Made by a program: the position numbers and the translations under genes
The notes under the pieces: model-generated
Told to the model about the DNA's origin: nothing
What the model saw: only the letters and a program-made list of their open reading frames with translations
Database searches by the model: none
Origin: Escherichia coli
GTDB taxonomy: Bacteria; Pseudomonadota; Gammaproteobacteria; Enterobacterales; Enterobacteriaceae
DNA length: 650 bases
Assembly (NCBI RefSeq): GCF_003334405.1
Contig: NZ_QOWM01000059.1
Strand: one strand, 5' to 3'
Part shown: positions 1 through 650 of the stretch, piece after piece
Numbering within the stretch: the stretch's first letter is position 1
Layout: each line of letters opens with the position of its first letter

Positions 1-650
1 CTTTTCGCGCCGGTGTGTATTCCGGCTCCACCTGTCTGGCCAGTTGCTCCACCGTCAGCCCGCACTGCGCAAGCCACGCCCGGCTTTCACTGCTCACGCG
101 GTCTGCCCGGATTTCTTCCTCCAGCCTGTCCAGCAGCCGCACCAGTTCAGCCGGGAACACCACGCCGTGGCCGTTCTCACTCCCTTCCTGCTGGAGCGTC
201 TCTGCCAGGCTGCGCCGCTGCGCTTTTTCCCGCTCGCCGTTCTCTGTCTCGACCCGGATGAGCGGCGTGAAGCTTCCCGGCTCGTATACCGTCTGGATAC
301 GTGTGGTGTCAGTCTGCACCGTCGTCAGCCTGTCTCCGTCCCAGCCATACCACGTCACCTCCGGTTTACGCGACAGCGACATCCACCCCGTCAGGTCACG
401 CTCCCGCCGCCAGACCCGTTTTGCCATTCGCCGTCCCAGCGGGTCGTAGAGGTAGCGGCTCTCGACCAGTGGCTCGCCATGCTGTATCCGCGTGTAGAAC
501 ACCAGGCGGTGCTGGCTGTCGTAGTGGTAGTGGTGGGTCCGCTCGTCGTCCGTCCGTATCACACCCGCCGGGATGCGGTCCGTCTTCTCCGTCAGCCTGC
601 CGTATTCATCGTGGCGGTAGACATAGTGCGCATCCTCCGCGATGCGGTTA
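1..650 (-). CDS. rhs: Rhs family YD-repeat protein, conserved core region; internal fragment, partial at both ends (N-terminus beyond position 650, C-terminus beyond position 1)
   Basis: Hand translation of the reverse complement in the frame with codons 649..647 down to 4..2 gives 216 codons with no stop. The product contains YD-repeat motifs ([39 protein letters not shown]) and matches my recollection of the E. coli RhsA/B/C/D core. GC about 64% with G/C-rich third positions, typical of Rhs cores. Paralog cannot be resolved from this window; the symbol is a family-level placeholder. Confidence 0.95.
32..253 (-). other. Glu/Arg-rich segment of the Rhs core lacking YD motifs, probably helical
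   Basis: Translation [74 protein letters not shown] is dense in E/R/Q/L/A and has no Y-x-Y-D pattern. Helical character is inferred from composition only, not modelled. Confidence 0.5.
326..625 (-). other. Block of four degenerate YD (Rhs) repeats within the Rhs core coding sequence
   Basis: Protein-level motifs fitting the YD-repeat pattern (Y-x-Y-D-x2-G-R-L or close variants) at about 593..625 ([11 protein letters not shown]), 500..529 ([10 protein letters not shown]), 428..454 (YLYDPLGRR) and 326..352 (WYGWDGDRL). Spacing is about 25-35 residues. These are degenerate at the DNA level, not nucleotide direct repeats. Confidence 0.8.

Follow-up and report, generated by a model that had tools for sequence, protein, structure and literature searches.

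Does a stretch of Escherichia coli DNA that can be read without a stop along its whole length belong to a gene, and if so, to which gene, and is that gene intact? The stretch analyzed here, which we call the window, is 650 nt long with a G+C content of 64%. In a six-frame translation, the minus-strand offset-1 frame runs from nt 649 to nt 2 (2..649, minus strand) as 216 codons with zero stops, and it continues off both edges. An earlier note, made from the letters of the sequence, had assigned this frame to an Rhs core gene that is open across both window edges, and our re-translation bore this out. The note had also explained correctly why the frame is missing from the list of open reading frames: the gene exceeds the window, and the listing omits open reading frames that run off the source. 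Taken alone, an open frame is weak evidence in this window, because the G+C content is high and at least one open 216-codon frame also occurs in 4-8% of composition-matched random sequences. Homology, not openness, decides the identification.

We believe, with a probability of about 97%, that the window is minus-strand coding sequence from the interior of an Rhs core gene, one that belongs to the rhsD/rhsE subfamily of E. coli. The NCBIfam equivalog model NF041261 (RHS_core, "RHS element core protein") matches the window translation with 473.6 bits (E=1.4e-141), in a single ungapped stretch that covers profile positions 941-1156 of 1261. The whole-protein cutoff of this model is 2000 bits, which is out of reach for a 216-aa fragment; full-length RhsD scores 2787.7 bits. 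At the DNA level, BLAST comparison gave 100% identity over 650 nt to rhsD and other Rhs core genes, and the 216 aa are an exact substring of RhsD, aa 938-1153, which lies in the C-terminal third of the 1258-aa core, where the note had predicted it to be. The gap-free alignment to NF041261 and the exact substring also agree with the statement that the segment contains no frameshift or premature stop.

The repeat models are less uniform. TIGR01643 (YD_repeat_2x) matches the window with 18.8 bits against a cutoff of 15.8, with its best stretch at aa 98-122 of the translation, and matches full RhsD with 158 bits in 6 stretches. The Pfam model PF05593 (RHS_repeat), which had been proposed as a check on the identification, gave no significant match inside the window (E=0.69 and 5.4), although it is significant elsewhere in RhsD (aa 320-396, E=1.7e-4 and 8e-4). 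This miss is explained by how degenerate the repeats are toward the end of the core, and it is no argument against membership in the family; at the level of sequence profiles, the identification is carried by TIGR01643 and RHS_core. Pfam matches of the window translation to CesT and PDEase_I_N are chance matches and uninformative, and we rejected them.

Rhs stands for "rearrangement hot spot". Descriptions of rhsD and rhsE go back to the late 1980s and early 1990s, and the structure and function of Rhs cocoons have been characterized. As the earlier note maintained, this is a known Rhs system and not a new one; the window is an ordinary piece of the E. coli rhsD/rhsE core, already known at the gene level, and nothing about its gene identity is new. 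The note had given the sequence as the RhsA-D core of E. coli. That it is an Rhs core holds, and it can be placed more exactly in the rhsD/rhsE subfamily. RhsA of K-12 (b3593, rhsABCF subfamily) has the same architecture, including the helical insert described below, but it belongs to a different subfamily, is only 78.7% identical in amino acid sequence over the window region, and is not detected at the megablast level in the K-12 records among the matches listed.

Two parts can be distinguished in the translation. The first, aa 1-136 (242..649, minus strand), is the YD-repeat part and corresponds to the last beta-hairpins of the Rhs shell, an assignment that draws on alignment to solved shells, predicted strands and TIGR01643. 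Residues 2-136 align to the solved Rhs shells of Tse5 (8cp6, E=1.5e-8), Salmonella bongori Rhs (8qjb-d) and Pseudomonas protegens RhsA (7q97), and AlphaFold2 predicts this part, which ends in a strand, as beta strands. We noted four YD-like motifs in it, two of them found with a regular expression and two by eye. Motif 1 (aa 9-19; 593..625, minus strand) was recognized by eye and overlaps a weak Pfam RHS_repeat match at aa 10-24 with E=0.69, while motif 2 (YHYDSQHRL, aa 41-49; 503..529, minus strand) was found by regular expression, with a weak Pfam match at aa 40-50. Motif 3 (YLYDPLGRR, aa 66-74; 428..454, minus strand) was also found by regular expression, and it aligns with YRYDALSRR of Tse5. 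Motif 4 (WYGWDGDRL, aa 100-108; 326..352, minus strand) was recognized by eye and falls within the TIGR01643 match at aa 98-122; in this region, the alignment-query residues G5, W6, D7 and G8 are invariant or nearly so. At the DNA level, the window contains two short direct-repeat families, which are either an echo of the YD motifs in DNA or chance. The family with copies at 328-345 and 423-440 is such an echo, of motifs 4 and 3, respectively.

The second part, aa 137-216 (2..241, minus strand; RhsD aa 1074-1153), makes up about 37% of the window and is a helical insert, not YD, so the recognizable YD repeats claimed for the window are confirmed for aa 1-136 and not for the remainder. It comes after the final shell hairpin and before the C-terminal plug. 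Five helices are predicted in it by AlphaFold2 (nt 38-241), at window aa 137-143, 148-155, 167-181, 187-195 and 200-204. The model, which was built for the fragment from a 30-sequence alignment, has a mean pLDDT of 78 and a pTM of 0.60, with helices 3-5 at a pLDDT of about 90 and beta-hairpins flanking the insert. A Pfam scan found no domain in the insert. The Pfam domain PF03527 (approximately RhsD aa 1155-1190, outside the window), at the start of the plug, begins 2 aa past the window end. The window codes for the final turn of the shell wall and for a lineage-specific five-helix insert before the plug, and it contains no catalytic or toxin residues.

In the alignments of the window query to solved Rhs structures, aa 137-216 lie outside the aligned region. 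A longer query was made of window aa 98-216 and the downstream sequence encoded by rhsE, and is equivalent to RhsD 1035-1258. With this query, alignment to all solved structures resumes at the following conserved block, which reads VHFYHCDHRGLP in rhsE and AHLYHCDHRGLP in RhsD. The spacing between the conserved blocks on either side is about 81 aa in RhsD versus 3-4 aa in 7q97 and 8qjd. In Tse5 it is roughly 25-35 aa, and in Tse15 it is roughly 40 aa, the latter a rough estimate from match coordinates of two separate searches. The solved T6SS Rhs cocoons considered are those of Tse5 from Pseudomonas aeruginosa (8cp6), P. protegens RhsA (7q97), S. bongori Rhs (8qjb-d), Acinetobacter baumannii Tse15 (8uxt), Vibrio parahaemolyticus RhsP (8h8a) and Photorhabdus Rhs1 (7pq5). 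They share with RhsD the YD-hairpin shell, the YEPGSFxPL strand, the YHxDHLGTP block and the aspartyl-protease plug, all of which align. They differ in the spacer that joins the YEPGSFxPL strand to the YHxDH block, which has 3 to about 40 aa in the solved structures checked but about 81 aa, with five predicted helices, in RhsD.

The insert is not peculiar to RhsD. RhsA carries it with 67.5% identity, compared with 85% in the YD part. Among 1.84 billion 50%-identity representatives, 38,649 relatives were found at E<=1e-3, and many of those at 40-55% identity align unbroken through the insert with a similar length. Its length across the alignment, which extends to relatives at about 40% identity, is 70-100 aa, and it contains semi-conserved amphipathic blocks. 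One representative, P0001 (509 aa, 623 bits in 4 stretches), starts with an RhsA-type core end followed by scrambled repeats and contains PARKIHLYHCDHRGLP four times. This protein, a chimera in which RhsA-type core-end segments are scrambled, is most likely an assembly artifact in the public collection, and it was set aside.

A Foldseek search with the model returned Tse5 (E=6e-12), Tse15, RhsA, RhsP, the Advenella and Salmonella Rhs cores, teneurins and TcB/TcC, with TM-scores normalized to the query of at most 0.47. Scores in this range would fit a superposition of the beta parts in which the predicted helices have no counterpart. The YD shells of TcB/TcC and teneurins show distant similarity, in both fold and sequence, at the shell end and plug, but they belong to other delivery systems and domain contexts and are only 12-16% identical. 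A simple, non-exhaustive term search in a few Rhs structure papers found no mention of the insert, which is the sole item in the window with residual novelty. It is conceivable, although rather improbable, that in a large Rhs lineage of enterobacterial type the five-helix insert forms a functional module not described before. It might then act as a latch or gate when the toxin is released, or offer a chaperone or spike component a surface for docking.

The remaining question is whether the gene that hosts the window is intact. In K-12, the window sequence is present exactly twice, in rhsD and in rhsE. The rhsD copy (b0497, NP_415030.1) comprises gene nt 2811-3460, which encode aa 938-1153 of 1426, at NC_000913.3 526,071-526,720; it is 100% identical to the window over 650 nt, with no difference inside the window. 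The other copy, also 100% identical over 650 nt, is in the rhsE pseudogene (b1456) at NC_000913.3 1,528,525-1,529,174, which is annotated as "incomplete; missing N-terminus" and adjoins ydcD and ISAs1/H-repeat transposase genes. What rhsE keeps is the part of the core that matches profile positions 734-1261, plus a tip unlike that of rhsD, and its fragment scores 1164.8 bits against NF041261, under the 2000-bit cutoff. Since rhsD and rhsE are both 100% identical to the window, the intactness of the host gene is undecidable from the window, and the window sequence alone cannot separate intact rhsD from truncated rhsE. The earlier note had called the sequence intact; this is correct for the segment, and it does not extend to the gene.

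The window could accordingly be a truncated, non-functional copy of the rhsE type, lacking the N-terminal ~730 codons, in which the frame is an open yet untranslated relic. We consider this unlikely, although it deserves to be taken seriously. It is consistent with the identical copy in the annotated-incomplete rhsE of K-12 MG1655, with the low score and partial profile coverage of that fragment, and with the annotation of the genome matches, where 5 of the 30 listed 100% matches lie under a partial rhsE-type feature. However, the intact rhsD is equally identical over 650 nt, most of the listed 100% matches carry an rhsD or full Rhs core protein annotation, and nothing within the window separates the two. 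For scans of this kind the lesson is that an open window in a multicopy family cannot certify an intact gene; here, an identical copy sits in a pseudogene.

The genome survey behind these annotations used megablast with the window DNA against complete E. coli genomes. Matches were found in 3,724 of 5,426 genomes, at a median of 3 places per genome, and in 1,790 records the best place reached an identity of 99% or more. Among the matches listed, all 30 were 100% identical over 650 nt, and the features under them are named rhsD, "RHS element core protein" or "RHS repeat-associated core domain-containing protein". At megablast sensitivity, each of the K-12 records among the matches listed has only 2 places. 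The complete E. coli genomes contain 10,781 matching places altogether, and 15 of these are on plasmids rather than chromosomes.

The two K-12 copies were also compared beyond the window. Over 1,566 colinear nt, rhsD and rhsE differ at 65 positions, all of them outside an 848-nt tract, rhsD nt 2613-3460, that is perfectly identical to rhsE; divergence elsewhere is about 9%. When 65 mismatches were placed uniformly 200,000 times, none of the placements gave a run as long as 848 nt. The window occupies the final 650 nt of the tract, which reaches 198 nt beyond position 650. At the other side, rhsD and rhsE first differ at the base immediately beyond window position 1, so that the tract end and the window edge coincide exactly. 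Judging from this pattern of mismatches, the tract is probably the product of recent gene conversion or recombination between two Rhs cores. Such an exchange is in keeping with the name "rearrangement hot spot". The main text of PMC2935791 makes no mention of gene conversion between rhsD and rhsE.

The earlier note was silent on a second open frame in the window. On the plus strand, the offset-1 frame likewise runs for 216 codons without a stop (2..649, plus strand), and one could propose that this frame is the real gene, or that an antisense gene overlaps the Rhs gene. We find this very improbable. The frame does span the whole window, and two open frames are seen in only 0.1-0.2% of composition-matched random sequences. 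However, it lies in the exact antisense register of the Rhs sense frame, and its openness is accounted for by the codons of the sense frame: none of its 18 Leu and 10 Ser codons is TTA, CTA or TCA, which would be the source of antisense stops, and sense GC3 is 80%. The whole of rhsD contains 23 TTA, CTA or TCA codons, and therefore the antisense frame is not open gene-wide. An NCBIfam profile search of the plus-strand frame found no family match, no promoter-like or terminator-like sites were found in the window when both strands were scanned, and an antisense gene is unannotated in all records examined (the K-12 rhsD and rhsE loci). The plus-strand frame is a codon-usage shadow and not a gene, and when a scan meets an open antisense frame in register with G+C-rich coding DNA, it should be read as such a shadow. 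That the minus-strand frame arose by chance in G+C-rich non-coding DNA, or that the window holds a structured RNA, has a negligible probability: frames of this length do occur in random sequences at the frequency given above, but the protein-level match at E=1.4e-141 refutes a chance frame, and an RNA finds neither an Rfam match at E<=1 nor inverted repeats in the window.

With the window assigned to an rhsD/rhsE core, the K-12 genes show what surrounds it. RhsD has the N-terminal domain DUF6531 at aa 46-123 (E=1.2e-18), which is missing from the truncated rhsE. In Tse5, DUF6531 is the N-terminal plug (PMC10684867). The Pfam PAAR_motif model reaches only E=0.14 at RhsD aa 2-20, and there is a literal PAAR tetrapeptide at aa 5-8; because only about 45 aa precede DUF6531, any PAAR domain in RhsD is short or atypical. 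At the other end of the core, TIGR03696 matches RhsD aa 1181-1258 and rhsE aa 456-533, outside the window, and the core-end motifs are DPxGx18DPxG at RhsD 1232-1257 and PxxxxDPxGL at RhsD 1249-1258 and rhsE 520-529. The C-terminal tip of RhsD contains DUF4329 (approximately aa 1292-1411, E=2.3e-37). G+C content is 63.3% in the rhsD core, 36.5% in the tip and 30.6% in ybbC, which is directly downstream of rhsD and annotated as a "PF15631 family protein". A fall in G+C from core to tip and downstream gene is the classical Rhs pattern (PMC2935791). An orphan Rhs C-terminal fragment, ylbH, follows ybbC, as does the pseudogene ybbD.

By analogy with published Rhs structures and genetics, the YD hairpins of a complete protein would spiral into a closed shell that encloses the C-terminal toxin. 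The C-terminal plug would be an aspartyl protease that cuts the toxin free inside the shell, after the DPxGL motif. The complex would then be mounted on the T6SS spike via PAAR/VgrG and delivered into neighboring bacteria, and a downstream immunity protein would shield the producer. The YD barrel around the toxin, the aspartyl-protease plug, T6SS delivery and the immunity gene are known from homologues (PMC10684867, PMC3150448, PMC7216683), for which autoproteolytic release and contact-dependent killing have been shown (PMC10684867, PMC3150448).

In K-12, no vgrG is annotated within 9 kb of rhsD or rhsE. In K-12-like strains the window sequence is probably not deployed as a weapon, because K-12 is not known to have a T6SS, and because rhsE is truncated. 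In such strains the sequence may be mainly a recombination substrate.

The rhsD neighborhood lies in NC_000913.3 521000-532000, with its features at 2262-8131 of that region. The rhsE locus (NC_000913.3 1524000-1534000; 3891-8953) continues with ydcD, the degraded ISAs1/H-repeat gene yncI and the intact ydcC.
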